A DNA stretch of 64,000 bases. Origin: a virus. This document shows positions 17,572-32,368 of the stretch, one piece after another. The notes beneath the pieces were generated by a model. The model was not told the DNA's origin. It saw only the letters and a list, made by a program, of their open reading frames with translations, and did not search any database. Every line of letters starts with the position of its first letter. The first letter of the stretch is position 1. A program made the translations under genes and the position numbers. Where the stretch lies: IMG/VR virus record IMGVR_UViG_3300035701_000001; one strand, written 5' to 3'.

Positions 17572-17586
17572 GGAGCCCGATTCTTC

Positions 17587-17659: not shown

Positions 17660-17670
17660 CCTTTTCAGAT

Positions 17671-17687: not shown

Positions 17688-17748
17688 AATGGTACGTCTT
17701 CTCCGAGGTCAATCCATGAACTCCAGGTCTCGTTCAAAGCAGGAAGCG

Positions 17749-18207
17749 ATGGACAACCGATACCCTCTCTGGGTCGACTCCAGTGAACGGTTCAACCTGC
17801 GGGAGGTCGCCCCCAACCTTTACGTGGGCTCCCAGTGGTCGTTGGAGTGCAGGGATTGGCGGGCGGTCGTGGATCTCACGGGAAGCAGCCGCAGCGATCC
17901 CACTGCATATGGACGTTGCGACCGGCTCCTGCGCTGGACCCTGCATGACGGGGATCCCTTCCCGGAGGGATCCCTCACGGCCATCGAGGGATTCTGCCGG
18001 GACCGGAGTGGTCCGATCCTTCTGCACTGCGCGGCGGGTCTCTCCCGGTCCGCCTCCGCTGCCTACGGAATCCTGAGGACCCACCACCGGCTGCCTCCGA
18101 GGGAAGCCCTCCGCAGGATTCGGGTCCTGCCTCAGTTTCCCGTGAAGGAGACCTTGCTTTCTGTGGAACAGTGGGTCCGTCGCTGGAAATATCGGAATTC
18201 CAGGTAG
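17749..18207 (+). CDS. dual-specificity/tyrosine phosphatase family protein
   Basis: HCAAGLSRSA (CX5R) P-loop; LYVGS and DGDP motifs. Confidence 0.85.
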   Translation: MDNRYPLWVDSSERFNLREVAPNLYVGSQWSLECRDWRAVVDLTGSSRSDPTAYGRCDRLLRWTLHDGDPFPEGSLTAIEGFCRDRSGPILLHCAAGLSRSASAAYGILRTHHRLPPREALRRIRVLPQFPVKETLLSVEQWVRRWKYRNSR

Positions 18208-18279
18208 AGTGGAGACGGGAGATGGTCCTGTGACGTTCTTCCCTTCTGCGGATAGAAGAGAAGAAAGAGAAGATATTCC

Positions 18280-18768
18280 ATGCATTCCCTGGTCTGGCTC
18301 GGTGCACTCGTTCTCGGTGGCTCGGCTCTGGCCTCGCGCGAGTCGAAGCCATCGGGTCCTGAGCAAGATCCCCGTTTTCAGCCGGTGGGTCCAGGGAGAG
18401 ATCCCGAGACATTCGGGGGGCAGGAAGAAGCGGTCCGTCTGGCGGATGCACTCGTAGCCCTCTGTGATTACGCCGAGGAAAACTGGGAGGAACTCGGGAT
18501 TCACAGAGTCCGGGTTCCTGAGGACCAGGGGGGTACCCTGGAAGGGATCCTCATTGAGCACTCCGTGCATGGAGCCGAATTCGTGATCCTCTCCCAGGCA
18601 CTCGAACTGGCAGAGCAGTACGAGGTCCGAGCCGTCCACGTCCTCTCGGACAAGGGGATCTTCATCGGATTCACTCCGCTGTTCTCCACGTCGTTCGAGC
18701 CCATCGACCCCGCATTCGTTAACCAGGGATTGCTGTGGAGGTCATACGGCAATCCCCTGTGGAAATGA
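18280..18768 (+). CDS. membrane-anchored hypothetical protein (WLGA family 1)
   Basis: MHSLVWLGALVLGGSALAS N-terminus. Confidence 0.75.
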   Translation: MHSLVWLGALVLGGSALASRESKPSGPEQDPRFQPVGPGRDPETFGGQEEAVRLADALVALCDYAEENWEELGIHRVRVPEDQGGTLEGILIEHSVHGAEFVILSQALELAEQYEVRAVHVLSDKGIFIGFTPLFSTSFEPIDPAFVNQGLLWRSYGNPLWK

Positions 18769-18814
18769 CGGGGTAGGGATTTATGGATAGGAAAGGGGAA
18801 AGAGAGGACATTCC

Positions 18815-19513
18815 ATGGCACACAAGACCGACTTCACTCCCCTGTACTGGCTTGGCGCGGCGTTGGTCGGCGCGTGGGCATTGTCTTCTGGAGGTTCGAA
18901 GGAAGAAAGGAGACTGGAAGGTCACCGGGGAAGGGCACAGGAACCCTACAGGACTGAAGAGCCACCACGGGAACCCGTCTCGCAGATGCAGACGAGAATC
19001 CCCGGAGGATCGGAAAGGGTCGAATCCGAGGTCCAGAGGAGAAAACCTGTCTCTTCCACAATGGGTCCCCAGAGAGCCAGTGTGGAAGAACAGGCCAGAC
19101 AAGCGGCAAAGGAAATGATCCCTGCCCAGGGGGAGGTCCAGTCTGTGGATCCGGGGGATGAGACGACTCTGATCTACCGGTATCCATCGGAGGATTGGCT
19201 CGGGACGCCCACAAAGACCCCCTGGGGGATTGCACGGTCTGCCCAGATGTTTGGAATCACAGGGTACATCTTCCCCGATGCGGCGGGTCGATACCCGATG
19301 TACGCCGCACAGGTCGAAGAAGGGATTTTCTATCCCTACTACTTGGTCTCCAAAGGAAAAGTGATTCCTGCGAAGTCCACCTTTGAGATCCTGTCCCTCG
19401 ATCCCTCCAAGGCCGAAGGCAAGGTCTACCTTTTCTCTCCGGACAATCCGAAGGACGTTCCCGGAAGAAAAGCTGTTCTGCAGGGAGGTCGGGTGAAAAT
19501 GGAGCAGGAGTGA
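18815..19513 (+). CDS. membrane-anchored hypothetical protein (WLGA family 2)
   Basis: LYWLGAALVGAWALSS; TPWGIA, FPDAAGRYP. Confidence 0.75.
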   Translation: MAHKTDFTPLYWLGAALVGAWALSSGGSKEERRLEGHRGRAQEPYRTEEPPREPVSQMQTRIPGGSERVESEVQRRKPVSSTMGPQRASVEEQARQAAKEMIPAQGEVQSVDPGDETTLIYRYPSEDWLGTPTKTPWGIARSAQMFGITGYIFPDAAGRYPMYAAQVEEGIFYPYYLVSKGKVIPAKSTFEILSLDPSKAEGKVYLFSPDNPKDVPGRKAVLQGGRVKMEQE

Positions 19514-19576
19514 GCTTGTTCCAGGAATGACATTGGGATGTGCTGCGGATAAGAAGGGGAAAAGAGAGGTCGTGTC

Positions 19577-20671
19577 ATGAATTCCCTGTACTGGCTCGGC
19601 GCGGCATTGCTCGGGGGTTGGCTGGCCTCGGGCTACGGAGAGAAGACGGAGGCGACTCCCTCTCGTCCGGCTCCGATCCCTCCCCGTCGGAATGGGACCG
19701 GACATGGGGATCAAGGTCAGGAGAGATACCCCGAGGAACCGGTCCAGGAACGCGAAGGGGCCGAATCAGGTCTTTTCGAGCAGGAAGAGCAGTTCGGACG
19801 CAAAAAGCCACAGCCATCGAAACACGAAGTTCGTACCGGGACTCCTCCTGCCAAGCCCAAGAAGAAGCCCGCTGCCATTGCCCAGAGCGATGCACTCGGA
19901 CTTGACCTCAACCCCATCTCCCGCCTGGCAACTTTCTCGAATTGTGAGGCCGAGAAGGTGGCAGCGCAGGAAGCCATCCGTCCTTTCTCGGAGCCGGTCC
20001 CGAAGACGCCCAGGACATCCCTGGTTGCTCCCCCTCCTCCGCCCCTCGACTTCGACGAAGAACTGGATCTCCTCGAAGAGGGAATCGAGTCCGAATTCTT
20101 CGAGGGTGTTCCGGAAGGAAAAGGACCCGTTTCTGCCAAGGCAAAGAAGTCAGCCCGGATCGAAACCCAGAACCGGGCAGTCCAGCGTGGGAAAGAAAAC
20201 GTCATCTCGGAGTTTTCCCTCGAAGGATCCTCAGAAGGCCCCGAGGAAGACGAAGAGGAAGACTGGCTCGACTGGGCCGAGGCCGAGTTTTCAGAAGAGG
20301 CGATGACCCAGTGGCAGGAATTCGGCCGCAAGCCCAAGGGATCTATGGCGGGACCCGGCAGCGAGTTCGAGGATCTGGAGTCTGCCGACCCCTACGCGAA
20401 CCTCGGCAACATCTACAGCACACCTGCAGGACCCGTACGGCATCGTCAGATCGACACGCCGGACGGCCCCCGCAACCTCTACACGTTCCCCGATGCTCAG
20501 GGCCAGTACCCGACCGTCTTCGATACACCGGACGGTCCCCGCTACGTCTATCCGGGGACTCTGCCGGGACAGACCGTCGAGGCTGTGACGGAACGGCGGG
20601 GGGATTCGTACTTCCACATGTCTCCGCAGCGGCTTGTCGATCTGGATTCACTTGGGCTTTCGGTCGAATGA
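19577..20671 (+). CDS. membrane-anchored acidic hypothetical protein (WLGA family 3)
   Basis: MNSLYWLGAALLGGWLAS; FPDAQGQYP. Confidence 0.75.
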   Translation: MNSLYWLGAALLGGWLASGYGEKTEATPSRPAPIPPRRNGTGHGDQGQERYPEEPVQEREGAESGLFEQEEQFGRKKPQPSKHEVRTGTPPAKPKKKPAAIAQSDALGLDLNPISRLATFSNCEAEKVAAQEAIRPFSEPVPKTPRTSLVAPPPPPLDFDEELDLLEEGIESEFFEGVPEGKGPVSAKAKKSARIETQNRAVQRGKENVISEFSLEGSSEGPEEDEEEDWLDWAEAEFSEEAMTQWQEFGRKPKGSMAGPGSEFEDLESADPYANLGNIYSTPAGPVRHRQIDTPDGPRNLYTFPDAQGQYPTVFDTPDGPRYVYPGTLPGQTVEAVTERRGDSYFHMSPQRLVDLDSLGLSVE

Positions 20672-20746
20672 CCCCCTTGTTTTTTGCCACTTCTTCCTTC
20701 AACTCATCTTGTTCTTCGGGATATAGAAGAGCAGGAGGATGTCTTC

Positions 20747-21721
20747 ATGCACCCTGTGATCTGGATCGGCAGCCTCGTCCTCGGGGCCTGGGCTCTCTCG
20801 GGAACCTCGAAGAGAAAGGAACCTCCTGTCGCAGGTTCTCCCGAACCTTCTCGCTCCGTAGGGTTCCTGGGTCGTCCTCGCTATGGAGCTACGGAAATCC
20901 GGCAGGTTTCCCCAGATGAACTTGGGCTTCTTGTTGAAGTACCCTGGGGAATAGTAGCGAAAGCACGGCAACAAACGCTGAAAGATGGCTGGACTCACAC
21001 GTTTTTTCCTGACGCACGTGGAAAATTTCCCATCTGGGCAATCGGCCAGCACTACTACTACTTGCCTCCAGGCGACCCGTGGACAGATCAGTGGGCAATG
21101 TCCTCGACGTACGCCGATCCGTTCGATCCTCCGACAAGGAAGAGGATTTTCACCGTTCCTTCCAAAGATCCTCAGTACTTCGACCTGGTCGATAGAATGA
21201 CTGAAATCAATCTGGACGAAGCCTATGCAGGGCGGAAGTCACGTTCGGACCGTTTCGGGGCAGTGACGGAGGAGGACCGCCTGGCTGTAGCCATCCGGGA
21301 ATTCAGGCGCGCAGCCGAGGAGTTCAAACCGCACTATGACAGGGGGGACTCCGTCCTGAATGCGAAGACCTCGGACAGCAAGGGTAGGCCCCTTGTTGGC
21401 GTTCTCACCCCTGTGGGGGACTGGGAATACGGGAAACCCATCAACTACGGCGTGGACTATCTCCATGGAGAGGCCTGTCGCATCGCGGAGAAGTACCGGG
21501 TGAGGGCAGCGATGTCTCCGGTGGTGTCCGTTGGGGAGAACCAAGGGGTCGTCATCGGACTCACGTCGGCTTGGAACCCAGCATTCCAGACTCTCTTCCG
21601 TGGACAGAATCCAGAGCTTCAATGGGGGAGAGCCAGTCTGAAGGGACTCCAGTACCAGACAGGCATCTTGCCACGTCCTGGTTCGGGGGACTCGTACGGG
21701 AAGAAGGCCTCCGAGATCTAA
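20747..21721 (+). CDS. membrane-anchored hypothetical protein (WLGA family 4)
   Basis: MHPVIWIGSLVLGAWALSG; VPWGIV, FPDARGKFP; GGAGG RBS. Confidence 0.75.
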   Translation: MHPVIWIGSLVLGAWALSGTSKRKEPPVAGSPEPSRSVGFLGRPRYGATEIRQVSPDELGLLVEVPWGIVAKARQQTLKDGWTHTFFPDARGKFPIWAIGQHYYYLPPGDPWTDQWAMSSTYADPFDPPTRKRIFTVPSKDPQYFDLVDRMTEINLDEAYAGRKSRSDRFGAVTEEDRLAVAIREFRRAAEEFKPHYDRGDSVLNAKTSDSKGRPLVGVLTPVGDWEYGKPINYGVDYLHGEACRIAEKYRVRAAMSPVVSVGENQGVVIGLTSAWNPAFQTLFRGQNPELQWGRASLKGLQYQTGILPRPGSGDSYGKKASEI

Positions 21722-21794
21722 CGCAATCGAATAGCGCACCAGATTGGGGATCTGGTGAGTGATCGTTCCAATCAGGTGGTCCCGACTTGTTCAT

Positions 21795-21871
21795 GGGGTT
21801 GTAGCTCAGTTCGGGAGAGCGCGGCGTCCGCAACGCCGAGGCCGGGGGTTCGACTCCCCTCGACTCCACCA
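21795..21871 (+). tRNA. trnA: tRNA-Ala(CGC)
   Basis: CGGCG-TCCGCAA-CGCCG; G3:U70. Confidence 0.9.
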
Positions 21872-21876
21872 TTCAT

Positions 21877-21949
21877 GGGCCTGTAGTTCATCTGGGAGAA
21901 CACCTCGGTGGCATCGAGGAGGCAGTCGGTTCGAGTCCGATCAGGTCCA
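21877..21949 (+). tRNA. trnA: tRNA-Ala(GGC)
   Basis: CCTCG-GTGGCAT-CGAGG. Confidence 0.85.
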
Positions 21950-21958
21950 CTATTTCAC

Positions 21959-22035
21959 GGGGTTGTAGCTCAATGGTTTAGAGCAATCGGCCGTTAACCG
22001 ATAGGCTGTCCGTTCGAGTCGGACCTTCCCCGCCA
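21959..22035 (+). tRNA. trnN: tRNA-Asn(GTT), two U-U mismatches in acceptor
   Basis: ATCGG-CCGTTAA-CCGAT. Confidence 0.8.
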
Positions 22036-22040
22036 TCTTT

Positions 22041-22128
22041 GGGACGGTAGCTCAGTTGGGTAGAGCGCGGTTCTGATAAGACCGAGGCCGAGAGGATTTC
22101 GTGGGTTCGAGCCCCGCCCGTCCCACCA
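22041..22128 (+). tRNA. trnI: tRNA-Ile(GAT), enlarged variable region
   Basis: CGGTT-CTGATAA-GACCG. Confidence 0.85.
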
Positions 22129-22129
22129 T

Positions 22130-22206
22130 TGTCCCCTAGTTCAATTGGCAGAACGCTCGGCTCTGGACCGAGAGGTTTCAAGGTTCGAACCCTTGGGGGA
22201 CAACCA
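22130..22206 (+). tRNA. trnQ: tRNA-Gln(CTG)
   Basis: CTCGG-CTCTGGA-CCGAG. Confidence 0.9.
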
Positions 22207-22212
22207 TCTCGT

Positions 22213-22285
22213 GTCGGTGTAGCCCAAAGGCTGGGCACGACGCTGCAAACGTCGAAGAATGCCGGTTCGAATCCGGCCGCCGACT
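22213..22285 (+). tRNA. trnC: tRNA-Cys(GCA)
   Basis: CGACG-CTGCAAA-CGTCG; U73. Confidence 0.85.
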
Positions 22286-22292
22286 CCCTCTT

Positions 22293-22368
22293 CGGGGTGT
22301 AGCTCAGTTGGAGGAGCGCCTGGTTCGGGACCAGGAGGTTTTCGCCGGTTCGAGCCCGGCCACCCCGA
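22293..22368 (+). tRNA. trnP: tRNA-Pro(CGG)
   Basis: CCTGG-TTCGGGA-CCAGG. Confidence 0.9.
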
Positions 22369-22454
22369 CTCCTTCGTGTTACAACAAGGATACCGGCAGG
22401 CCGTGAGCCGGGACAACCGCACGGTACCTTCACCTCGATGTCAGGGAGAACGAC

Positions 22455-22883
22455 ATGAGACAGGTGCGTGCGAAGTTCCGGTGCATGGAGATCAGCCGTT
22501 TCTGGAACGGGGGGTGTACGCTCGTACGTTTTTTGCCTGTCATGGCAAAGAATGGATGCCGTGCGGACGAAGAGACCGCCAGCGAGGAGAACGCAGCCTT
22601 CTGGCAGGCAACCCCTTCCGGAGAAGCCAAGCTCCAGTTCCCCACGCTCGACCCCGTGTCCTACGAGATCGGGCACTGCTACTACCTCGACATGCGTCCA
22701 GACGAACAGGGGAGTTGGAAGCTCACCGAGCGCAAGCACAGTGAAGGCCAACTCGGGGTTGTCCTGTCCTGCTCCTGGCGGGACTCGGTCAGCATGAACA
22801 TCTGCAACGAGTCAGCCTGGGATGCCTTCGACGGTCCCATCGGGGGACCCTGGTCTGTCGAGTTCACGCACGCGGGGCCGTAG
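22455..22883 (+). CDS. hypothetical protein inside tRNA array
   Basis: 142 aa, GGAGA RBS, VRAKFRC and ENAAFWQATPSG motifs. Confidence 0.75.
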   Translation: MRQVRAKFRCMEISRFWNGGCTLVRFLPVMAKNGCRADEETASEENAAFWQATPSGEAKLQFPTLDPVSYEIGHCYYLDMRPDEQGSWKLTERKHSEGQLGVVLSCSWRDSVSMNICNESAWDAFDGPIGGPWSVEFTHAGP

Positions 22884-22898
22884 CGCTCCTTCTTTTGC

Positions 22899-22969
22899 CG
22901 GGGCGTTGGCAAGCGGCAAGCCACCAGGCTTTGGTCCTGGCATCGCAGGTTCGAATCCTGTCGCCCCCA
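22899..22969 (+). tRNA. trnQ: tRNA-Gln(TTG)
   Basis: CCAGG-CTTTGGT-CCTGG. Confidence 0.85.
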
Positions 22970-22977
22970 CCTTCGAA

Positions 22978-23054
22978 GGCAGCGTACCTCAGTTGGCCAG
23001 AGGAGGGCGCTCATATCGCCACGGTCGCCGGTTCGAGTCCGGCCGCTGCCACCA
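22978..23054 (+). tRNA. tRNA-Met/Ile2(CAT)
   Basis: CT-CAT-AT loop; identity Met vs Ile2 not resolved. Confidence 0.8.
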
Positions 23055-23063
23055 TCCTTTCAT

Positions 23064-23141
23064 CCGGCTGTAGCTCAGCCTGCTCAGAGCGCGTGGTCGG
23101 GGACCACGAGGTCGCCCGTTGAAGTCGGGCCAGCCGGACCA
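23064..23141 (+). tRNA. trnP: tRNA-Pro(GGG), C19:G56 variant
   Basis: CGTGG-TCGGGGA-CCACG; D loop AGCCTGCTCA, T loop TTGAAGT. Confidence 0.85.
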
Positions 23142-23145
23142 TTTT

Positions 23146-23220
23146 GCGGGTATGGCGCAATGGTAGCGCATCGGGTTGCCAATCCGAAGGTTGCCGGTTC
23201 GACTCCGGTTGCCCGCTCCA
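23146..23220 (+). tRNA. trnG: tRNA-Gly(GCC)
   Basis: TCGGG-TTGCCAA-TCCGA. Confidence 0.9.
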
Positions 23221-23339
23221 CTTTGAAATAATCTACAAAAAACGAAAGAAACGAAAATAATGACACAGAACTTGTATAGTCCGAGGCTTGGACTATACAG
23301 TTCCTGTGCAATTTCAAGAAAGATGCAGGTTCCTTCGTT

Positions 23340-23412
23340 GCTGACATAGCTCAGCCGGTAGAGCAGTGGTTTTGTAAACCTCAGGTCGTCGGTTCGAACC
23401 CGACTGTCAGCT
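23340..23412 (+). tRNA. trnT: tRNA-Thr(TGT)
   Basis: TT-TGT-AA loop. Confidence 0.9.
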
Positions 23413-23422
23413 TTCCTTCCTC

Positions 23423-23500
23423 GCCCCAGTAGCTCAGGTGGATCAGAGCGCGTCCTTGGTAAGGACGAGGTCATCGGTTCAAGTCCGATTTGGGGCTCCA
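23423..23500 (+). tRNA. trnT: tRNA-Thr(GGT)
   Basis: CGTCC-TTGGTAA-GGACG. Confidence 0.9.
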
Positions 23501-23506
23501 TTTTGT

Positions 23507-23584
23507 GCCTCAGTAGCTCAGATTGCTTGGAGCGCCTGCTTCGTACGCAGGAGGTCGTCGGTTGGAATCCGACCTGAGGCTCCA
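23507..23584 (+). tRNA. trnT: tRNA-Thr(CGT), C19:G56 variant
   Basis: CCTGC-TTCGTAC-GCAGG; D loop AGATTGCTTG, T loop TTGGAAT. Confidence 0.85.
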
Positions 23585-23587
23585 TTT

Positions 23588-23719
23588 CTCAGGACGCATC
23601 GAACGAGGCTAGGGCCCGTGTCTCCCTTCGGAATCGGTGGGAGGAGCTTCGGCTTCGTTTGCACCACCCCAACGCGGTGGATAATCGGGGTGGGAAGCGT
23701 GCGGATGACCTGTCCTGGG
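23588..23719 (+). ncRNA. unidentified multibranch RNA in tRNA array
   Basis: Terminal TCAGGAC/GTCCTGG stem enclosing CTCCC/GGGAG, GAGC-TTCG-GCTT and CCACCCC/GGGGTGG hairpins. Confidence 0.35.
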
Positions 23720-23727
23720 ATCTATTT

Positions 23728-23799
23728 GCGGGAGTAGCTCAATGGTAGAGCGCCAGCCTTCCAAGCTGGCCGTTGCGGGTTCGAGTCCCGTTTCCCGCT
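23728..23799 (+). tRNA. trnG: tRNA-Gly(TCC)
   Basis: CCAGC-CTTCCAA-GCTGG. Confidence 0.9.
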
Positions 23800-23807
23800 C
23801 TTTTTCC

Positions 23808-23882
23808 GGGTGTGTAGCTCAATGGTGGAGCACCGTTTCGACATGGCGGAGGCCGTTGGTTCGAGTCCAATCACACCCACCA
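23808..23882 (+). tRNA. trnV: tRNA-Val(GAC)
   Basis: CCGTT-TCGACAT-GGCGG. Confidence 0.85.
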
Positions 23883-23888
23883 TTTCTT

Positions 23889-23926
23889 GGGGACGTAGCT
23901 CAGTTGGGAGAGCGGCGTTGCACGCG
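23889..23926 (+). pseudogene. truncated 5' half of tRNA-Ala(TGC)
   Basis: GGGGACGTAGCTCAGTTGGGAGAGCGGCGTTGCACGCG with no T arm or 3' acceptor. Confidence 0.7.
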
Positions 23927-23952
23927 TAGTCCAGGTATGGTAGCACTAGGCT

Positions 23953-24444
23953 ATGTCGAAGTACCGCTTTGTGAAAGCTCCTCCTGACTACCCCGGCAAG
24001 GTGTACTCCTGGGGGTATCGGGTTCTTGAACATCACCTTGTTTGGTGGCAGAACACCAAGCGCCTCGTTGCAGAAGGTTTTGAGCTTCACCACAAGAACG
24101 AAAATGGGTTGGACAATCGCTTTGAGAACTTGGAGGAAATCAGGGCGCCGGATCATGGCAAGCTGCATCACCCAAAGGAACCGGATGTGGAGACAACCTG
24201 CGCTTACTGCGAAAAGCCTCTCACTAGAAGTGGCCGGGATGTCAAGTCCAAGAGAAAAGCTGGTCAGCAGCGATTCTTCTGCTCATCTTCTCATGCAGCC
24301 CTCATACGACAACGTGAGAAGAAAGGATCGAAGGCCGGTCACGGTACAAGCTCGATGTATAACATTCATGGCTGTCGATGTGAAGTCTGCAAAGTCTACA
24401 ATCAAGCCAAGTATCTCAGGTACAAGGCTAAAAAGGGGCGTTAG
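23953..24444 (+). CDS. HNH homing endonuclease (HNH_3-like)
   Basis: VLEHHLVWW..ELHHKNENGLDNRFENLE; CAYC/FCSSSH and CRCEVC Zn motifs. Confidence 0.85.
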   Translation: MSKYRFVKAPPDYPGKVYSWGYRVLEHHLVWWQNTKRLVAEGFELHHKNENGLDNRFENLEEIRAPDHGKLHHPKEPDVETTCAYCEKPLTRSGRDVKSKRKAGQQRFFCSSSHAALIRQREKKGSKAGHGTSSMYNIHGCRCEVCKVYNQAKYLRYKAKKGR

Positions 24445-24510
24445 TTCAGTTGCGAGAACACTCGGCTTGCACCCGAGAGGTCGCGGGTTGGAACCCCGCA
24501 CGCTCCACCA
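24435..24510 (+). tRNA. trnA: tRNA-Ala(TGC), C19:G56 variant, overlaps HNH stop codon
   Basis: CTCGG-CTTGCAC-CCGAG; D loop AGTTGCGA, T loop TTGGAAC. Confidence 0.85.
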
Positions 24511-24516
24511 TTTCTG

Positions 24517-24590
24517 TGCGGGGAGAGGTGTTGGTTTCCCAACCAGGACTCATACTCCAGGCCACGTCGGTTCGATTCCGGCCCCCGCTA
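24517..24590 (+). tRNA. tRNA-Met(CAT), initiator-like 1:72 mismatch
   Basis: CT-CAT-AC loop; U1-U72 mismatch; lacks the three anticodon-stem GC pairs of canonical fMet. Confidence 0.75.
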
Positions 24591-24599
24591 CCCTTGTTC

Positions 24600-24672
24600 G
24601 CGAGCATCGTCTAGCGGCCAGGACTCCGCCTTTACACGGCGGCTATCGGGGGTTCGAGTCCCTCTGCTCGCA
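24600..24672 (+). tRNA. trnV: tRNA-Val(TAC)
   Basis: CCGCC-TTTACAC-GGCGG. Confidence 0.85.
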
Positions 24673-24682
24673 CTTCTCCCAT

Positions 24683-24755
24683 GCCCCCGTCGTCTAACGG
24701 TCAGGACTCCGGGTTTTCAGCCCGGCTACTGCAGGTTCGAATCCTGTCGGGGGTA
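24683..24755 (+). tRNA. trnE: tRNA-Glu(TTC)
   Basis: CCGGG-TTTTCAG-CCCGG. Confidence 0.85.
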
Positions 24756-24761
24756 CTCCTT

Positions 24762-24836
24762 GCTCGCGTAGCTCAATGGAGGAGCACCGGAGTTCTACCT
24801 CGGTCGATGGAGGTTCGAATCCTCTCGCGAGCGCCA
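24762..24836 (+). tRNA. trnR: tRNA-Arg(TCT)
   Basis: GT-TCT-AC loop; weak anticodon stem. Confidence 0.75.
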
Positions 24837-24841
24837 ATCAC

Positions 24842-24916
24842 GGCCCCGTAGCTCAGTGGAATCAGAGCCTCCCGTTCCTACCGGGAAGGTCACCGGTTCG
24901 AGTCCGGTCGGGGCTG
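24842..24916 (+). tRNA. trnR: tRNA-Arg(CCT)
   Basis: TCCCG-TTCCTAC-CGGGA. Confidence 0.9.
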
Positions 24917-24976
24917 CTTTTCCTCGTCGTGCAAGACCGTCGTATCCAGGGTATTCCTCTGCTGCAGGAAACTGTC

Positions 24977-25558
24977 ATGCACGCCGTCCTTCTTCTCAAC
25001 GTCGACCATACCCCCATGAAGATCGTCCCCTGGCAGAAGGCCATGTGTCTTCTGCTCGCGGACAAGGTCCGGCTCATCGAGAGCTACGGGGACAAGGTCG
25101 TGCATTCCGCCTCGGGCAAGACCTGGCCCTGGCCTGCGGTCGTGGCCCTGAAGACCTATGAGCGGATCAAGAGGGCCGAGTCGAAGGTCAAGTTCAAGCG
25201 CCTCAACGTGCTGGCCCGAGACGGGTTTGCCTGCGCGTACTGCGGGGTCAAGCCCCAGACGTCCGCCGGGCTTCCTGACCTGTCTCGCCTCTCGGTCGAC
25301 CACGTCGTTCCGAAGTCCCGTGCGGTCGATGGCAAGGTGAAGCTGCCCTGGAACGGCCGGGTGGTCCCCATGACGTGCTGGGACAACGTCGTGTCCTCCT
25401 GCAACGCCTGCAACTACGCGAAGGCGGACCGGACCCCTGCCGAGGCGGGGATGAAGCTCCAGGTCGTCCCGAGACGACCCAATCCCTTCGACGTCGTCCG
25501 CATCGTGCTGTCTCGGATGGCCGTGCCTGCCGAGTGGGAACCACATTTGTCTTCTTGA
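24977..25558 (+). CDS. HNH endonuclease (McrA-like)
   Basis: VLARDGFACAYCG, SVDHVVPKSR, WDNVVSSCNACNYAKAD. Confidence 0.9.
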   Translation: MHAVLLLNVDHTPMKIVPWQKAMCLLLADKVRLIESYGDKVVHSASGKTWPWPAVVALKTYERIKRAESKVKFKRLNVLARDGFACAYCGVKPQTSAGLPDLSRLSVDHVVPKSRAVDGKVKLPWNGRVVPMTCWDNVVSSCNACNYAKADRTPAEAGMKLQVVPRRPNPFDVVRIVLSRMAVPAEWEPHLSS

Positions 25559-25562
25559 CCGT

Positions 25563-25591
25563 TTGACACCTGGAGTGTCATAGGGTAAGGT
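25563..25591 (+). promoter_or_regulatory. promoter of cas12f-like gene with operator copy
   Basis: TTGACA-N17-TAAGGT; TGACAC-CTGGA-GTGTCA at 25564-25580. Confidence 0.7.
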
Positions 25592-25621
25592 GGTCGCACA
25601 GGACAGGCCACGGCGGTTTGC

Positions 25622-26953
25622 ATGAAAAAGTCCAAGGTCTCCAAGACCCCCAAGATCATCATTTCCCATCCGGGTTTCCTCACGCGGGCCGTGCGGTTCG
25701 CGGTGAGCTTCCCTGGGATGCGGAAGGCCGATCTCAATGGGGAGAAGGGGCTGTTCTACCAGCTTACCGTCACACAGAGCGATGTGCGTCGAGCCGCCAA
25801 CCGCCTGATTCACCTCATCGCCTTGCTCGACCGTGGGATGATCGAACGGCCGATGAGGGAAGATGGAACAGGCCCCGAGTACGCCCAGACCCTTGGCTAT
25901 CGGGCCCTCAACGGAACCTGGCAGCCCTTCGACAAGCCTCTTTACGATCCGGAAGCCAAGCGGCTCGGCGGTGGATGCCTCTCTGCGCTGTCCGAGTTTG
26001 TCCGCAACCGGTATGCCAACGACAAGAAGGCAGTCCGGAAGGATCGGAATCGTCCGGAGTACAGCACGTTCAAGATCCTCCCCATCCCCATCCGGGCCCA
26101 GGAGACCCACATCCAAGAGGACGAGAAGGAGGGAATCACGATTTCCCTTGGCCTGTGGAGCAGGGATGCGGGGGGAGCCACTCGCCTGAAGGTCAAGCCG
26201 GTCAAACCCAACGCAGGGCAGAAGACCATCCTCCAGCGTCTCCTCGATGGAACCTACTCGTGTGGCGGTGCACAACTCACCCATCATCCCCGCAAGGCGA
26301 AGTGGATGCTGTCCGTCGTCTATACAGGCCTGGTCCAGCAAACACGGGGGGATTGGATTGCCGGGGTACGGCTCGATGCCTCTCCCTACGTCGAGATCGC
26401 CTACACCCCGAAGACTCCTGTTCCCGAAAATACTCCGAACCACGAAGCTCCTCGTCCGGATACGCTGCGTGTCTCGGAAGTCGCCCTGAGGGCGTGGTGC
26501 CAGGTGGAGGAACAGAAGAGGGAACGGCTGCACTTCAACCGGGACGTCTACGGGGCTCGGGAAGGACAAGGCCGGAACGGAAAGCTCAAGCCTGTCTCCG
26601 CAATCCAGGACAAGCATGCGAGGACGGTGAAGACAGCCCTGCAGCAGACCGCGTGTGCCGTCGTGGAGACGGCGAAGAAACGGGGTGCTTCGGTGCTCGC
26701 CCTTGGAGATGTGCAGGGTCTCGCCAGGAAATTCCTCCGCCAGACGGACGAGATGAGCCGCCGCAAGCGTGCCCACCTCCGCCGGATCCGGTTCTTGCAC
26801 CAGCAGCCGTCCGAACTGTACGGCTACATCCAGATGGCCGCAGAGCGGGAAGGCTTGGCCTTCCTCAAGGTCGGTCCTGCCGACTCCGCCCTCCATGCGG
26901 CCTTGCAAGGACGGGAAGCCATTCTGCAAGGAGAAATCCCATCCGTTTCTTGA
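25622..26953 (+). CDS. cas12f: nuclease-dead Cas12f/TnpB-derived type V effector
   Basis: Cas12f-like segments (LDGTYSCGGAQL..KWMLSVVY; GQGRNGKLKP..DK; AAEREGLAFLKVGP) but RuvC-I AGVRLD (D>R), RuvC-II ALGDV (E>G), no Zn finger or RuvC-III; adjacent to CRISPR array. Confidence 0.75.
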   Translation: MKKSKVSKTPKIIISHPGFLTRAVRFAVSFPGMRKADLNGEKGLFYQLTVTQSDVRRAANRLIHLIALLDRGMIERPMREDGTGPEYAQTLGYRALNGTWQPFDKPLYDPEAKRLGGGCLSALSEFVRNRYANDKKAVRKDRNRPEYSTFKILPIPIRAQETHIQEDEKEGITISLGLWSRDAGGATRLKVKPVKPNAGQKTILQRLLDGTYSCGGAQLTHHPRKAKWMLSVVYTGLVQQTRGDWIAGVRLDASPYVEIAYTPKTPVPENTPNHEAPRPDTLRVSEVALRAWCQVEEQKRERLHFNRDVYGAREGQGRNGKLKPVSAIQDKHARTVKTALQQTACAVVETAKKRGASVLALGDVQGLARKFLRQTDEMSRRKRAHLRRIRFLHQQPSELYGYIQMAAEREGLAFLKVGPADSALHAALQGREAILQGEIPSVS

Positions 26954-26974
26954 CTTTGAACGCTCTTTGACATT

Positions 26975-27180
26975 TCTGAGCATCCCCCTGTTGGTTCCCG
27001 CAGCGGCAGGGGTGTGGTGTTGGGCTGACTACGCAGCCAGAAGGGGAGTCCCTTTCTAGGGAAGCCACCCGAGCCCATGGGAAGCTCGGGGCGCGAAGTG
27101 GTCTACAGGGTTGCAAGCCTCGGTTCCCGGTGTCGAAACCGGTCCCCCCGAGGCCCCCCGCAAGGGGCAGGACCCGCTTG
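26975..27180 (+). ncRNA. putative tracrRNA (boundaries approximate)
   Basis: Anti-repeat CTACAG-GGTTG-CAAGCCTCGGTTCC (27103-27127) pairs 14+6 bp with the repeat using G-U wobbles; flanking hairpins. Confidence 0.65.
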
Positions 27181-27397
27181 ATCAACGCTCCTCAATCCTC
27201 TCCTTTTGCGAGTGGTCCGGCTTCGGCTGGATTCCCAGATGCCGCTCGCACGCTCGAAAGTGCAAATAAGGAAGGAACCTACTATTGAAAGATAGAAGAG
27301 TGGATCTCTGCGGGAACCTCTGTGGCTGCGTGGAAAAGGTGGATAACTCGCCATCCGAGTCGGAGAAGGGCTTGGTTTGCGGATCGTGAACGGGTCT

Positions 27398-29461
27398 GTT
27401 GCAGTGGAGGAACTGAGGTTTGATCTGCTGTAGCGCTCCTGGACACATCGACTTGCTGGCCGAGTTTCCAGGTTGCAGTGGAGGAACTGAGGTTTGATCT
27501 GCTGTAGCGCTCCTGGACACATCGACTTGCTGGCCGAGTTTCCAGGTTGCAGTGGAGGAACTGAGGTTTGATCTGCTGTAGCAAAAGACCGAACGTCCGG
27601 TCGAGACCAGCAATCCAAGTTGCAGTGGAAGGACTGAGGTTTGATCTGCTGTAGCATGATACAGCGCACGACCTATGCGCCCTTCGCGTCGTTGCAGTGG
27701 AAGGACTGAGGTTTGATCTGCTGTAGCATGCCCTGTCTGTCGGGAACGGATCCGTTGTACAGGCGTTGCAGTGGAAGGACTGAGGTTTGATCTGCTGTAG
27801 CCTACCAGCGGTCCGCCGGGATCACGGCGTCGGATCTGGTTGCAGTGGAGGAACTGAGGTTTGATCTGCTGTAGCCGCCCAAGTTCCGCTATCTCTCTCA
27901 GCACGTTCCGGGTTGCAGTGGAGGAACTGAGGTTGGATCTGCTGTAGCGCAGAGCTACTCCGTGAGTCCACGTCTCGCCCACTTGTTACAGTAGAGGAAC
28001 TGAGGTTTGATCTGCTGTAGCCGGCTCGTCGCCCTCCGCGACCACCTTCTGCACCATGGGTTGCAGTGGAGGAACTGAGGTTTGATCTGCTATAGCCAGG
28101 CCCGCAGTGTCTCCGGGCGGTGGCTAGAAGGCGGTTGCAGTGGAGGAACTGAGATTTGATCTGCTGTAGCAGCACCGGCCACCTGAGAACAGGTCACACT
28201 TCTCGGAGGTTGCAGTAGAGGAACTGAGGTTTGATCTGTTGTAGTTAGAGCGAGCGCGACAGGATGAGCGCGGACCTTTGAGTCGCAATGGAGGAAATGA
28301 AGTTTGATCTGCTGTGGCCCGCAATCTCGCTCGCTGTCCGAGCAATTTCCGGTGGTTTCAGTGGAGGAACTTAGGTTTGATTTGCTGTAGTTCCACGCGC
28401 GGACGCTACGCTGGGGCTGGCAGGTGAAATCGCAGTGAAGAAACTGAGGTTTGATCTGCTGTAATGACCCGGATACGCCCGCGTCCAATGCCAGTTCTGT
28501 GGTCGCAGTGGAAAAACTGAGGTTTGATCTGCTGTAATGACTTCCGGACGACCTTCTCTTCTGCAGATGATCAGTTGCAATGGAGGAACTTGGGTTTTAT
28601 CCGCTGTAGCAGGTACTCCGCTGCTTCATAGGTTTGATTCGCTGTAGCTTGGCGAGCGGAGGCTTCTTGTCAGGAAGATGAAGGAATCGCAATGGAGAAA
28701 CTTAGGTTTGTTCTACTGTAGTCTCGACCGTCTACCTTATGAGAGACCCTGTCATCGGTTGTAGTAGATGAATTGAGGTTTGATCCTCTGTAGCACTCGA
28801 ACTGACCATGGAAAAGTTGAGGTTTGATCTGCTGTAGCGAGGGTCCTCGATCCAAATCCAAAGGTCCTACCTTGTCACAATGGAAAAATTGAGGTTTGAT
28901 CCTCTGTAGCGGTGGAGCGACGTTGAGAGTTGGTTCCGCGAGCGCTTCGCAATAGAGAAATTGAGGTTTGATCCGTTGTAGCCGCAAGCCCGGTGACCAT
29001 CTGCCTGGTAAAATCGTGATTGCAGTAGAAAAGTTGAGGTTTGTTCCGCTGTAGTGCGGCTGCGGTCAACGGCAGGGGTTCCGTGGACATCGTTGCAGTG
29101 GAAAAGTCGAGGTTCGTTCCATTGTAGCAAGAGAAGCTCGAAGAATGGAAGGAGCATCCCGGTGGTTGCAGTGGAAAAGTCGAGGTTTGATCTGCTGTAG
29201 CAAGCCGTTCACCGGGGAACAGTCCTGGTATGGGGTCGGATATCTGAACCTCGTGATGTCCCATCGAATTGCAGGGGAAGAATTGAGGTTGGATCCACTG
29301 TAACATTGCCTGCCACGTTTCACAGGTAGAGGTCGATTGTCGTTGAGATGGAGGAAGGAAAGTCAGATCTGCTGTAGTGCGGCCCCCGTGCTGCCCCATG
29401 AAGTTCCTTGTGCCTGCCAAAGAGGTCAAGGGGGAAAAACATAGGTTGGATCCGCTGTAAT
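27398..29461 (+). CRISPR. CRISPR array, ~28 repeats, 37-bp consensus GTTGCAGTGGAGGAACTGAGGTTTGATCTGCTGTAGC, spacers mostly 35-37 bp
   Basis: Repeats at 27398, 27472, 27546, 27619, 27691 ... 29342, ~29425; degeneracy increases rightwards; spacers 1 and 2 identical. Confidence 0.97.
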
Positions 29462-29537
29462 GAGCCGATATCCCGGCGTCTGCTGATGTTTGGAGTGGGC
29501 ATGCCCATGCATGACCTGTATTTGACGAGGAGAAACC

Positions 29538-30356
29538 ATGGCTCATGTGACCTGGGTGGTTGAGACAGGCATTGAGCCTGCCTATGAAAAGGTTCTCCTG
29601 AAGTCTATTCAGAAAACCGGTTCGAAAGCCTTCGTTCGCAAGGTGCTACCGTTCGGGGAGGGGATGCTCGATCCTCCGGATCTTTCGGGGCATGTCGTGT
29701 TCCATGGAAGCCTCCAGGGGGCCCAGTGGGTCCGGGAACATACCGACTGGAAGCCCGGTGCCATCGAAAACACCTCGCAGTTGGAGTGTCGCTACTACTA
29801 CCCCCGGCTTGGACCCAGGCTTCTCAATCGGGAACACACTTTCCTCCCCTTCGGCTGCCTGGAGGAACGCAAGGACGACCTGTTCCGGTGGCTGGGGGAG
29901 GCGGACTGCATCTTCCTTCGCCCGGACTCCAACCGGAAGCCGTTCTCGGGGCAGATCATCCGGAAAGAGCAGTGGAATGAGGATATTGGCCTTGCTTCCT
30001 TTTACGGCGTAGATCCCGAGGTGATGGTGGTCGTGGCCCGACCTCAGGTGGTTCGGGCCGAATGGCGGTTCTTCGTGTGCCGGGGGCAGGTAGTCACGGG
30101 CTCCTGCTACCGTCGGGGGGACCAGCGGGTTCGGAAGCGTGCCGACGAGAAGAGGATGGACGTGGCGAGGAACATGCTCGCGTTTGCCCTGAGCCAGGGG
30201 TATGACCCCGACCCCGTGTGGGTACTGGACATCTGCGAGGACGGAGCAGGGGAGTACCGCATCTTGGAGGTGGGCGGTTTCTCCAGTGCCGGGCTCTATG
30301 CCTGCAACACCCACCTCCTGGTGCAGGCGGTCGAGGTCGCAGTCACGCAGCCTTGA
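29538..30356 (+). CDS. ATP-grasp domain protein (R2K clade / DUF4343-like)
   Basis: IFLRPDSNRKPFSGQI, EWRFFVCRGQVVTGSCY, WVLDIC..YRILEVGGFSSAGLYAC. Confidence 0.85.
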   Translation: MAHVTWVVETGIEPAYEKVLLKSIQKTGSKAFVRKVLPFGEGMLDPPDLSGHVVFHGSLQGAQWVREHTDWKPGAIENTSQLECRYYYPRLGPRLLNREHTFLPFGCLEERKDDLFRWLGEADCIFLRPDSNRKPFSGQIIRKEQWNEDIGLASFYGVDPEVMVVVARPQVVRAEWRFFVCRGQVVTGSCYRRGDQRVRKRADEKRMDVARNMLAFALSQGYDPDPVWVLDICEDGAGEYRILEVGGFSSAGLYACNTHLLVQAVEVAVTQP

Positions 30357-30921
30357 ACGTCTCCGTGTAGAGGTCCAGCAGTTCCCGGTTCGCCAGGGAC
30401 GCCATCATCCGAGACTCGGGGATCTCATCCTCGGGGTACTGATCGACATACCACCTGTCCCATGTTCGGTAGAACTTCCCACCAAATCCGAGCCAACCGC
30501 AGAAGCGGTACTCGTTCCCGTTCTTCTCCTGCGTGAGCCAGTCAACGAAGGACGCCCGGTCATGGGTGGGCTCCTTTCCCAGGCAGTTGCGGACGATGAT
30601 GTCGTACACCTTGTTCGCAACCTCGGGGGTGACGGTGAGAACCCTGTGGGTGTTGCGGGGCATGGCCACCCACTTTGCACAGGTTTCCTGGTTGATGGCT
30701 GCCACCAGCGGGTCGAGGCTGTACGCCAGGTAGGCATCCACTGCCCTCTTTCGGGTCTTGAACGGACCGAGTTTTTTCTGGGTGGTGAGCAGGATGAACC
30801 ACCCCTCTTCCTCCTTGTCGATCCAGCAGAGGTTTCGGAAGTTTGTGTCCACAGGTCCTTTGTAGAGGGCAGCGTAGGTTCCCTTTTCGATTTTCTTGAA
30901 CTTGTACGTTCCAAGGATCAT
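30343..30921 (-). CDS. hypothetical phage protein
   Basis: 192 aa; EYRFCGWLGFGGKFY..YVDQYPEDE motif. Confidence 0.7.
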   Translation of the reverse strand: MILGTYKFKKIEKGTYAALYKGPVDTNFRNLCWIDKEEEGWFILLTTQKKLGPFKTRKRAVDAYLAYSLDPLVAAINQETCAKWVAMPRNTHRVLTVTPEVANKVYDIIVRNCLGKEPTHDRASFVDWLTQEKNGNEYRFCGWLGFGGKFYRTWDRWYVDQYPEDEIPESRMMASLANRELLDLYTETFKAA

Positions 30922-30926
30922 GTCTG

Positions 30927-32368
30927 CCTGGTTTCGGAAAGTTGATGAAACTTCCCAGGCGTCCTTTCATTCGCCATTGGCATCCGACCGCTTTGCAGCA
31001 GTTGGATGACGGGATTGACCAGTTGTAGATCCCGATTCACCCCCAGGAATCTCGCCTGAGTTATCCCCTGTGCCAGCAGGATTGCTGGAGCCAGAGACAG
31101 GGCTGTGAGCCCGGCTATTCTTCGGACGAAGGAACGAGTCCTTCATCCACGACCACGCCTTCGGCTTGAGTGCATGGTTACGGGATCTTGCTTCCAGCTT
31201 CACCCGTGACCCACCCCGGCCTTGGAGCGTGTCCGTAAACGTCTGTCTCTCCTTGATTTCCATTCCACGACGAGCGATCACGAGGGCCGCCGCTGTGTGA
31301 CGATTCAAGGAGTACATACCGGCGTACTTGAGGAGACCGAGAACCGACGTGAACGCCGGATTGACTTCGATGGCCTCGACGCCCTCACTTGCTGCCCTGG
31401 ACTTGATGGCGTCCAGTATCCTCCTGTGGAGGAAGTTGTGCTTCATCCTCTGGAACTTCGCCCCACGCTGCTTCCCGCCCCAGAACCGCAACTCCTCCAA
31501 GACAAGGGGCTTGCGAACCTTCACCGCATAGTCCACCACCTGGATAGCAAGCTGCCGAACGTCGTAGGTCCGCTTGCCCTCACAGGCGAACTGAATGCGC
31601 TGCTCTTTCTCGTACCGATGGTCCAGGAGATTCCCGTCGGAGTTGACCTCAACCAGGGCCACTCCATCAGGATTGCAGTCCACCCCGATTGTCCCGTTGG
31701 AAGGGGAGGTCGTGATGACATGTGGAGCCAATTCGTCCCAGGATATCGAGACCTTGAACTTGTCCTCTCCCACCCACTTCAGGCGAACATCGTAGCAGGA
31801 CCAGTTCGGCTTGAATTTTGCGGGCATCCAAAACTTGCCCTCGATCCACAGCCCCCGTGCAGCCGGGTCATTGATGAGAATCTTGTCCTTCACGACACGG
31901 ATGTTGGGATTGCCCTTCTTGGTCTTGTCCCCTCGGCTGTAAAGAAGGGAGTTCCGACGCTGCTGCCAGTCTTCTTTGGCTAGCTCCCCAGACTGGAAGT
32001 TCTTCCACGCCTTCTTTCCCCCGAAGATCACGGAGGGCTTGTCCCTCATCTGAGCGGCGATGCCACAGGCGTCGGAGACGTATCGCTGGTTCAGATCAGC
32101 CATGTAGCGCGTCTTGACGTGCTTCTTCACCTCATTGGTGACGTGGCCAGTCCTCCGCATGAACTGGTAAGCCGACCGGACTGCACTGGACTGGACCAGC
32201 ATCAACTTGGCCACCCGATCCCTGTCGGATTGGGAGGAAAAGTAGGCAGTTCCATGAGCCACACGTCGCATGGAGAGAAGATAGAGGATTCTATTCCTCC
32301 CGTCAAGGCCGCTCCATACAATGAGGCTTCATCAAGTTTCATCAACTTTTTGGGTAGCTGCTGCTACC
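30927..32368 (-). mobile_element. non-autonomous tnpB-only element with IS607-like ends
   Basis: 16-bp inverted repeat AAAGTTGATGAAACTT (30938-30953 / 32334-32349); right end TTCCGAAACCAGG resembles TTCCGAGCAACGG of the IS607 copy. Confidence 0.65.
30967..32271 (-). CDS. tnpB: TnpB-related protein (Zn-finger-less subfamily)
   Basis: IGVDCN, LVLEEL, VNPAFTS, NRHTAAALVIARRG. Confidence 0.85.
   Translation of the reverse strand: MRRVAHGTAYFSSQSDRDRVAKLMLVQSSAVRSAYQFMRRTGHVTNEVKKHVKTRYMADLNQRYVSDACGIAAQMRDKPSVIFGGKKAWKNFQSGELAKEDWQQRRNSLLYSRGDKTKKGNPNIRVVKDKILINDPAARGLWIEGKFWMPAKFKPNWSCYDVRLKWVGEDKFKVSISWDELAPHVITTSPSNGTIGVDCNPDGVALVEVNSDGNLLDHRYEKEQRIQFACEGKRTYDVRQLAIQVVDYAVKVRKPLVLEELRFWGGKQRGAKFQRMKHNFLHRRILDAIKSRAASEGVEAIEVNPAFTSVLGLLKYAGMYSLNRHTAAALVIARRGMEIKERQTFTDTLQGRGGSRVKLEARSRNHALKPKAWSWMKDSFLRPKNSRAHSPVSGSSNPAGTGDNSGEIPGGESGSTTGQSRHPTAAKRSDANGE

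Follow-up and report, generated by a model that had tools for sequence, protein, structure and literature searches.

The 64,000-nt stretch of the IMG/VR virus record IMGVR_UViG_3300035701_000001 analyzed here (the window) contains at positions 25,563 to 29,461 a gene for a Cas12f-family effector that has lost its nuclease site (P0001), followed on the same strand by a candidate helper RNA and a long CRISPR (clustered regularly interspaced short palindromic repeat) array. With somewhat better than even confidence, the locus gives a giant phage-like element a DNA binder that is guided by RNA and does not cut, and P0001 itself, to judge from its sequence, is probably functional in this role. The main rival explanation is a slowly decaying relic. 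On the + strand, an HNH endonuclease gene (24977-25558), the open reading frame (ORF) of P0001, a non-coding stretch of 445 nt, and the array follow one another in this order. The locus is composed of three elements:

25622 to 26953, + strand: gene of the nuclease-dead Cas12f (dCas12f) P0001, 443 aa, with an AsCas12f-like WED/REC/RuvC fold from which the three RuvC carboxylates and the zinc finger (TNB) are gone
26990 to 27249, + strand: candidate helper RNA, a scaffold resembling a trans-activating CRISPR RNA (tracrRNA), family specific and structured, ∼200 to 260 nt
27398 to 29461, + strand: CRISPR array with 28 full 37-nt repeats, which begin with GTTGCAG and end with CTGTAGC (inverted termini), 445 nt past the stop codon

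Fold and active site of P0001

P0001 is a Cas12f-family effector with the compact, TnpB-derived WED-REC-RuvC fold, and the initial annotation of a 443-aa Cas12f/TnpB-like protein is borne out by sequence and structure alike. The protein matches the PADLOC Cas12f profile at 2e-18 and, in HMMER alignments over residues 72 to 367, the AsCas12f chains 8J12, 7WJU, and 8DZJ at ∼3e-13. Pfam domains are absent from P0001, including OrfB_IS605 and the helix-turn-helix (HTH) domain, unlike the TnpB encoded at positions 4182-5507. The AlphaFold2 model, built on 73 family sequences, reaches a predicted local distance difference test score (pLDDT) of 88.9 and a predicted template modeling score (pTM) of 0.83 and is confident up to residue ∼420, with the last ∼22 residues poorly predicted. 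Comparison of this model with Cas12f structures, named in the same annotation as a way of checking the assignment, gives AsCas12f 8J12 as the top Foldseek match (E value of 2e-21 and TM-score of 0.65-0.70 over ∼420 columns), followed by OsCas12f and SpCas12f1, with the sigma-E-linked dCas12f 9N9C farther away (5e-14). One catalogued viral protein in BFVD matches the model equally well.

The active site is altered at all of its carboxylates. At RuvC-I, P0001 reads 'GVRLDAS' over 'GIDLGVA' of AsCas12f, with R250 at the position of the catalytic Asp, a column occupied by Ala in the D225A constructs 7WJU and 8DZJ. At RuvC-II, 'LALGDVQ' stands over 'IQMEDLT', with G362 at the catalytic Glu. R250 and G362 align with D225 and E324 of AsCas12f, where mutation of each of the residues D225, E324, R383, and D401 abolishes cleavage (bioRxiv 10.1101/2023.07.03.547593). 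The third change concerns the C terminus. After the conserved strand 'AAEREGL..KV.P', the relatives continue with 'YTSKTC..CG...C.CG..(H)AD.NAA.NIA.RG', whereas P0001 shows 'ADSALHAALQGREAILQGEIPSVS'; the CxxC...CxC zinc finger of the relatives is gone after 'KVGPADSA'. The 20 aa that remain, 'LHAALQGREA..', seem to be left over from the RuvC-III helix ('DADLNAARNIA'), without its Asp. Searches by tblastn with the C termini of nine relatives find no zinc finger remnant downstream in any frame, which indicates a clean in-frame deletion and led to the rejection of a frameshifted or split C terminus. The substitutions read by eye in the earlier work, D>R in RuvC-I, E>G in RuvC-II, and a ∼20-aa tail in place of the zinc finger and RuvC-III, are thus recovered by alignment. 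With all three carboxylates lost, P0001 is predicted to be incapable of RuvC activity.

Helper RNA and CRISPR array

The region between the stop codon and the first repeat is organized as follows:

26967 to 26972, + strand: TTGACA-like hexamer, 14 nt past the stop codon, in the same place in the related loci L001, L004, and L209 and weaker in L002
27023 to 27038: P1 hairpin of the helper RNA
27043 to 27048 and 27188 to 27193: GGGGAG and CUCCUC, a long-range pairing within the helper RNA
27102 to 27127, + strand: segment previously taken for an anti-repeat, with 6 to 7 bp plus 14 bp of complementarity to the 3' two-thirds of the repeat
27117 to 27123 and 27148 to 27154: stem A, nested
27127 to 27131 and 27138 to 27142: stem B, enclosed by stem A
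27208 to 27249: conserved 3' hairpin of the helper RNA
27250 to 27397, + strand: leader-like region from the helper RNA to the first repeat, with a relatively high A+T content

The non-coding stretch after the gene is kept in every related locus of sufficient length (the window, L001, L002, L004/L005, L209/L210, and L211). Common elements are the TTGACA-like hexamer, a variable 5' hairpin, and a nested multi-tier stem-loop inside the GGGGAG/CUCCUC domain. The nested stems covary across six related loci. Stem A reads GCCUCGG/CCGAGGC in the window, GCCGGGG/CCCCGGC in L004, GCCCGG/CCGGGC in L002, GCCGCG/CGCGGC in L211, and CCCCGCG/CGCGGGG in L209; stem B also covaries, and a 5-bp hairpin, GGCYG/CRGCC, shows two compensatory changes. 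The strands of the 3' hairpin, GCGAGYGGUC and CCGCUCGC, are in turn conserved in sequence. Each family locus with enough sequence has a single copy of the motif GCYG-N6-CRGC-NNRARGGGGAG downstream of the gene; the window likewise has one copy, and 206 unrelated loci have none. This confinement to family loci makes a dedicated scaffold RNA, predicted for dead and zinc finger-bearing members alike, well supported. The hexamer is possibly the −35 element of a helper RNA promoter; a scan for the sigma-70 consensus returns no full promoter, and the promoter and terminator consensus scan is uninformative. No Rfam family matches positions 25400-29700. A metagenome scan with a three-part helper RNA pattern recovers 120 loci, none with a Cas12f-family gene, and these were rejected as chance matches in G+C-rich DNA. 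A fixed guide following the 3' hairpin was likewise rejected, as this stretch has no self-match elsewhere in the window.

Helper RNAs without a regular array occur beside two other dead, zinc finger-less effectors. In L211 (7339-7700), P0033 is accompanied by the helper RNA, with no repeats before the next gene on the opposite strand; possibly, this locus naturally works with one guide, as do TldR and the sigma-E dCas12f systems. In L209 (7590-7990) and L210 (5300-5700), P0030 and its helper RNA are followed by no canonical array; the region instead contains ∼10 irregularly spaced copies of GGKGCGGTGG, a motif resembling the 5' end of the window repeat (GCAGTGG). These copies may be a reduced or reshaped guide array.

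The initial annotation described a same-strand anti-repeat that pairs with the repeat via G-U wobbles. The complementarity is real: positions 27114-27127 and repeat positions 12 to 25 form an uninterrupted run of 14 pairs, including three G-U pairs, and 27103-27108 pairs with the 3' end of the repeat. The duplex is the best in the intergenic region (−35.8 versus −27.6 for the next), and a helix of at least 14 arises in mononucleotide shuffles with P ∼0.02. The tracr role of the segment is uncertain because it overlaps the covarying stem A. Pairings of the relatives with the repeat are segmented, at 8 to 10 bp, and in array-bearing relatives, pairing of the strand homologous to the anti-repeat with the repeat of the same locus is weak. 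The anti-repeat could instead be the invariant CCGCUCGC(A) in the 3' hairpin, for which the conserved 5' portion of the repeats is a possible partner (UGCAGUGG in the window, UGCAGCGG in L004, and CGAGCGG in L001); in RNAcofold, L001 alone is paired intermolecularly, via the CCGCUCG segment of this alternative. The helper RNA also contains look-alikes of the repeat in cis: the 3' strand of stem A, CCGAGGC, resembles CUGAGGU of the repeat, and the 5' strand of the 3' hairpin, UGCGAGUGG, resembles UGCAGUGG. This piecewise likeness of the repeat to partner strands from both helices may date from an origin of the repeat from the scaffold or may reflect displacement of these strands by the CRISPR RNA (crRNA). 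A tracr-dependent effector is plausible on these pairings.

The count of about 28 repeats given initially agrees with the 28 full repeats listed above. The spacers are 35 to 38 nt long, with ∼26 distinct full-length ones. The 11 leader-proximal repeats differ by at most ∼3 bases, and the distal repeats show ∼63 to 75% identity. Repeat decay sets in at ∼28.2 kb and affects mostly the 5' half; the better preservation of the 3' half (GAGGTTTGATCTGCTGTAGC) is consistent with + strand crRNAs carrying a handle from the 3' part of the repeat and with a leader on the gene side. The distal array includes a partial repeat (28629-28648), two repeats 7 nt apart (28758/28802), and over-long 'spacers' of 66 and 46 nt. 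At the other end, the first two repeat-spacer units are identical (74-nt unit, 27398-27545). The Joint Genome Institute (JGI) contig L128, from another sample, equals window positions 24884-31475 base for base except that this unit is single (L128:2515-2588). The doubled first unit is either a population variant, caused by slippage or recombination, or an assembly difference; as the assemblies differ by this unit alone, there is no sign of spacer acquisition.

Recurrent nuclease loss and the proposed function

An exhaustive search of 1.84 billion representatives yields 133 relatives of P0001, 36 of them below 1e-30; peptide-pattern searches of IMG/VR find none. In a maximum likelihood tree of 63 family members, P0001 is sister to P0003 (42% identity), which has the canonical D/E/zinc finger/D arrangement, and both group with P0006 (canonical) and P0008 (His at RuvC-I) in a clade of four that is well supported. 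The catalytic residues were scored in 62 members. RuvC-I and/or RuvC-II is noncanonical in 20 of these, corresponding to at least 10 changes on the tree, and both are replaced in six (P0001, P0002, P0011, P0048, P0057, and P0065). The zinc finger is also lost in several members, namely, P0011, P0030, P0033, P0057, P0065, and P0067. As predicted from these residues, nuclease loss is recurrent in this Cas12f clade associated with phages and mobile genetic elements, and the loss in P0001 is an event of its own. An array and a helper RNA also accompany P0002 (L001), another dead family member.

A sizeable share of the clade shows His in place of the RuvC-I Asp ('GVHLG') and keeps the Glu, the zinc finger, and the RuvC-III Asp. 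This variant comprises P0008, P0020, P0025, P0027 to P0030, P0032, P0036, P0038, P0040, and P0135, the last of which (L004) has an array.

The divergence of P0001 is distributed unevenly over the protein. In the WED/REC half (residues 20 to 245), the mean identity to 13 canonical relatives is 0.347 for P0001, 0.348 for P0003, and 0.340 for P0006; in the RuvC half, the values are 0.330, 0.421, and 0.382, respectively. A drop in the RuvC half only is likewise found in four other dead members and in none of the canonical ones. P0001 keeps 27 of the 36 columns with at least 80% conservation, and 6 of the 9 lost columns are RuvC or zinc finger positions. The ORF is intact over 443 codons, and the four assemblies in which P0001 occurs show no difference in its sequence. 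Samples with this element are JGI 3300035659, ENA ERZ27248148, and SRA SRR11719878. The main argument for function, short of proof, is therefore that the guide- and DNA-binding half appears to evolve as in active enzymes and that the nuclease half alone is relaxed. By this pattern, the gene is not plainly dying.

The module can be described as self-contained, adaptation-less, and type V-F-like, with a naturally nuclease-dead Cas12f as its effector. By analogy with AsCas12f, the closest solved relative, the effector is probably dimeric. Its partners would be the helper RNA from the stretch directly after the gene and crRNAs processed from the array of 28 repeats, and the complex would find complementary double-stranded DNA flanked by a protospacer-adjacent motif (PAM), form an R-loop, and stay bound. 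Instead of cutting, the bound complex would block transcription or replication of the target, a natural form of CRISPR interference (CRISPRi), with host genes or rival mobile elements as the presumed targets. The programmable DNA-binding repressor of the initial annotation is supported in part: a non-cutting DNA-binding role is the best reading, and its aim at host defense genes or competing phages is an inference. In a fuller and more tentative version, held with less than even confidence, the locus is a multiplex CRISPRi weapon of a giant phage in which ∼26 guides silence genes of the host or of rival elements, nuclease loss is a recurrent and selected route, and the helper RNA perhaps serves as a switch. 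For such a switch, the crRNA would have to displace the look-alike strands in cis in order to load.

Several observations weigh against a functional DNA binder. The core of the proposed anti-repeat, GCCUCGG, is at the same time the 5' strand of stem A, whose partner CCGAGGC lies 25 nt downstream, and in RNAcofold of the helper RNA with the repeat, neither the window nor L004 yields intermolecular pairs, as the repeat forms a fold of its own. The protein may be unstable without its zinc finger, since replacement of the zinc finger cysteines of AsCas12f by alanine leads to severe protein precipitation (bioRxiv 10.1101/2023.07.03.547593). The distal half of the array is decayed, and between samples, no spacer turnover is seen apart from the duplicated or lost unit. 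Mapping of the spacers, from which the initial annotation had expected an indication of the targets, gives no protospacer: none is found by BLAST with all spacers against the array-masked window and 213 fetched loci, by a distant-mode search with the whole array against the INPHARED phages and PLSDB plasmids, or by exact 24-nt scans of IMG/VR with spacers 1, 3, 4, and 9. None of these searches yields a PAM, and the spacers of L001 and L004 show no cross-hits either. Finally, P0001 is a singleton lineage whose nearest relative is nuclease intact, and no relative has its exact lesions.

Part of this evidence bears on the relic explanation, in which the nuclease of a once active phage Cas12f was lost and the whole module of gene, helper RNA, and array is now functionless and drifting toward loss. 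It agrees with the canonical state of P0003 (D/E/Zn/D) and the isolated position of P0001 on the tree (end branch of 1.3 versus 0.84), with the degenerate, fused, or partial distal repeats, with the absence of spacer gain between assemblies, and with the lack of targets in the databases searched. A relic is nevertheless unlikely. Only the RuvC half shows raised divergence, with the WED/REC half on a par with that of the active sister; the ORF has stayed open for 443 codons despite four separate lesions, with a zinc finger deletion that is clean and in frame; all conserved elements of the helper RNA are intact, and the first 11 repeats are near identical; and repeated nuclease losses in the family have often left the helper RNA in place. 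As to the possibility raised at the outset that relatives would reveal a recently decayed active gene, the nearest relative is intact, and the extra divergence of P0001 is restricted to the RuvC half. The RNA-guided, non-cutting DNA binder remains the preferred reading.

If this reading is true, the locus would rank with the clearest examples in nature of a viral CRISPR program that uses many guides and no cleavage. It would bear on how phages reprogram their hosts or exclude rivals, on why phage Cas12f lineages repeatedly lose the nuclease, and on the minimal size of an RNA-guided DNA binder; the 443-aa effector dispenses with the zinc finger that engineered dCas12f tools keep.

Carrier element, neighboring genes, and known systems

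The window looks like part of a large (204,502-nt) phage-like element. This appearance is based on 41 tRNA genes, phage-type HNH endonucleases, a small number of PHROG families without an assigned function, and a gene content made up mostly of orphans. The features around the locus are as follows:

5500 to 6207: protein with a HAD_SAK_2 ('Swiss Army Knife' RNA-repair) domain
8745 to 24917: 41 tRNA genes in blocks, filling the stretch upstream of the dCas12f locus and including a tRNA-SeC(tca) call at 8745 to 8818
23953 to 24444: second HNH endonuclease, which together with the HNH gene at 24977 to 25558 flanks the last tRNA block
24977 to 25558, + strand: HNH endonuclease gene, 63 nt upstream of the dCas12f ORF and co-oriented with it
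29538 to 30356: R2K-clade ATP-grasp protein (phrog_7313), directly after the array

The neighborhood was scanned with Pfam and PADLOC on the larger, hand-picked ORFs between 19.6 and 37.5 kb. The scan yields the two HNH endonucleases, the R2K ATP-grasp protein, a distant TnpB-like protein, and orphans. Among these ORFs, no cas1, cas2, or cas4 gene, no Tn7 gene of the tnsB/tnsC/tniQ type, and no sigma factor gene is found, in agreement with the earlier description of the adjacent genes; an HTH partner or operonic rpoE is missing from the same set. Precomputed Pfam matches of L128 contain no cas1, cas2, or cas4 either. The related loci on long enough contigs lie in a mobile element-like context of integrases, a DUF3987 primase-like gene, a DNA methylase, HNH genes, and small orphan runs. 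A conserved partner gene was rejected, as Pfam and all-against-all BLASTP reveal no neighbor common to six related loci; the conserved unit is therefore the gene with its helper RNA, usually together with an array.

These neighbors bear on two further explanations. The dead effector could act as an RNA-guided recruiter that brings the HNH endonuclease encoded at 24977-25558 or a host factor to the target. The HNH gene lies directly upstream in the same orientation, and a dCas12f of Bacteroidota that recruits sigma-E offers a precedent (PMC13472631). Such a role is improbable, since no neighbor is conserved among the related loci, HNH homing endonucleases are common in the element (the second at 23953-24444), and the scanned ORFs include no sigma factor or HTH partner. 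The locus could also serve as a decoy or guide donor, in which the dead protein soaks up the tracrRNA or crRNA of a host or rival Cas12f or in which the array and helper RNA serve an active Cas12f elsewhere. Effector-less phage arrays have been proposed to use host Cas proteins (PMC7162821), and the family also includes active members whose helper RNAs are related. This is likewise improbable, given that the gene, helper RNA, and array travel as one module here and in related loci, that the other TnpB-like genes of the window are of separate families and not accompanied by this helper RNA, and that no host system is known.

The gene at 4182-5507 (+ strand) encodes a canonical IS605-type TnpB with HTH_OrfB, OrfB_IS605, and TNB zinc finger domains (PADLOC Cas12u4/Cas12f at 1e-74). 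It belongs to a sequence class different from that of P0001, and its nearest genome matches, at ∼40% identity, are from Asgard archaea (Hermodarchaeota and Thorarchaeota), Chloroflexota, and others. P0136 (30967-32271, − strand; 434 aa), located 1.5 kb past the distal end of the array, is a distant TnpB/RuvC-like protein with the motifs 'GVDCNP', 'VLEEL', and 'NPAFTS', without a zinc finger and with His at the expected RuvC-III Asp. In the ESM Atlas, it falls into a large, mostly viral SSO2105_N family, one cluster of which has 8041 members. P0136 was rejected as a second effector for the array, as it represents a separate large phage family of the SSO2105_N type without similarity to P0001. 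Farther downstream, positions 37711-64000 are occupied by an array of paralogous, back-to-back ORFs of ∼155 to 175 aa on the + strand.

Among the described systems, TldR, Cas12m, and Cas12k resemble P0001 as TnpB/Cas12 superfamily proteins with an impaired RuvC domain; guided by RNA, they bind DNA and do not cleave double-stranded DNA, as is predicted for P0001. TldR has a single guide of the omega-RNA type, overlapping the 3' end of its gene, and no array, in contrast to the locus described here. Cas12m is ∼600 aa long and tracr independent, whereas P0001 has 443 aa and lies beside a candidate helper RNA. Cas12k of the type V-K CRISPR-associated transposons is linked to tnsB/tnsC/tniQ, whereas no Tn7-like genes occur among the scanned ORFs.

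The dCas12f-sigma-E activators (9N9C/9N9M) share with P0001 a naturally dead, C-terminally truncated Cas12f fold (Foldseek, 5e-14). These systems are mostly array-less, with single chimeric guides, and have an rpoE and/or HTH partner, which is missing from the ORFs scanned here. The structural match is weaker than that to AsCas12f, and 9N9C is not among the matches of the sequence search.

The V-F1 nucleases AsCas12f, OsCas12f, and SpCas12f1 (8J12, 7WJU, 8DZJ, 9NZQ, and 9I8Y) give the best sequence and structure matches and share the fold and size class (422 aa for AsCas12f versus 443 aa). Further common features are the large structured helper RNA beside the gene, a 37-nt repeat starting with GTTGCAG, and the gene-helper RNA-array layout. 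P0001 differs from this group by the loss of the RuvC carboxylates and zinc finger, by which it does not qualify as a nuclease on sequence grounds, by the lack of cas1, cas2, and cas4 in the scanned ORFs, by its phage-like carrier, and by an identity to AsCas12f of only ∼22%. Adaptation genes are present in many V-F loci and are not obligatory.

With its dead Cas12f homologue, array, and predicted scaffold RNA, the locus falls within the loosely defined kind of natural CRISPR-array-associated dCas12f. The initial annotation had found no match among the inactive type V relatives, which is overstated in view of two precedents. Al-Shayeb et al. described type V-F systems of huge phages without Cas1, Cas2, or Cas4 in 2020, including a 'dCas14' (RIF_PHAGE_CU_29_17) with a spacer that hits a host tRNA synthetase gene, and proposed repression (PMC7162821). 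Hoffmann et al. reported in 2026 a cluster of CRISPR-array-associated dCas12f proteins with C-terminal truncations and covarying guide-scaffold RNAs upstream of the array (PMC13472631, Extended Data Fig. 1a,b). Their example is chromosomal, from a metagenome-assembled genome of Chitinophagaceae, with a guide that matches an efflux promoter, and repression was again proposed (PMC13472631). Neither study tested such systems (PMC7162821 and PMC13472631), and literature searches retrieve no functional study of a phage-borne dCas12f.

By its description, the cluster of Hoffmann et al. (PMC13472631) resembles the present locus in the dead Cas12f beside an array, the C-terminal RuvC truncation, and the covarying scaffold RNA. 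Here, the carrier is a ∼204-kb phage-like element, no target was found, and the inactivation arose independently inside the AsCas12f-like clade. The 'dCas14' of the huge phages (PMC7162821) shares the phage-borne Cas14/Cas12f with an array, the lack of Cas1, Cas2, and Cas4, and the loss of a catalytic residue. It lacks one such residue and has a protospacer in a host gene, whereas P0001 lacks all three as well as the zinc finger and has no detected protospacer; the array, with 28 repeats, is well above the median of 6 for phage arrays in length. As the kind has already been noted in two papers, the locus does not establish a new principle, and its value lies in its extreme form: the loss of the full triad, the clean deletion of the TNB, the array of 28 repeats, and an active sister lineage available for comparison.

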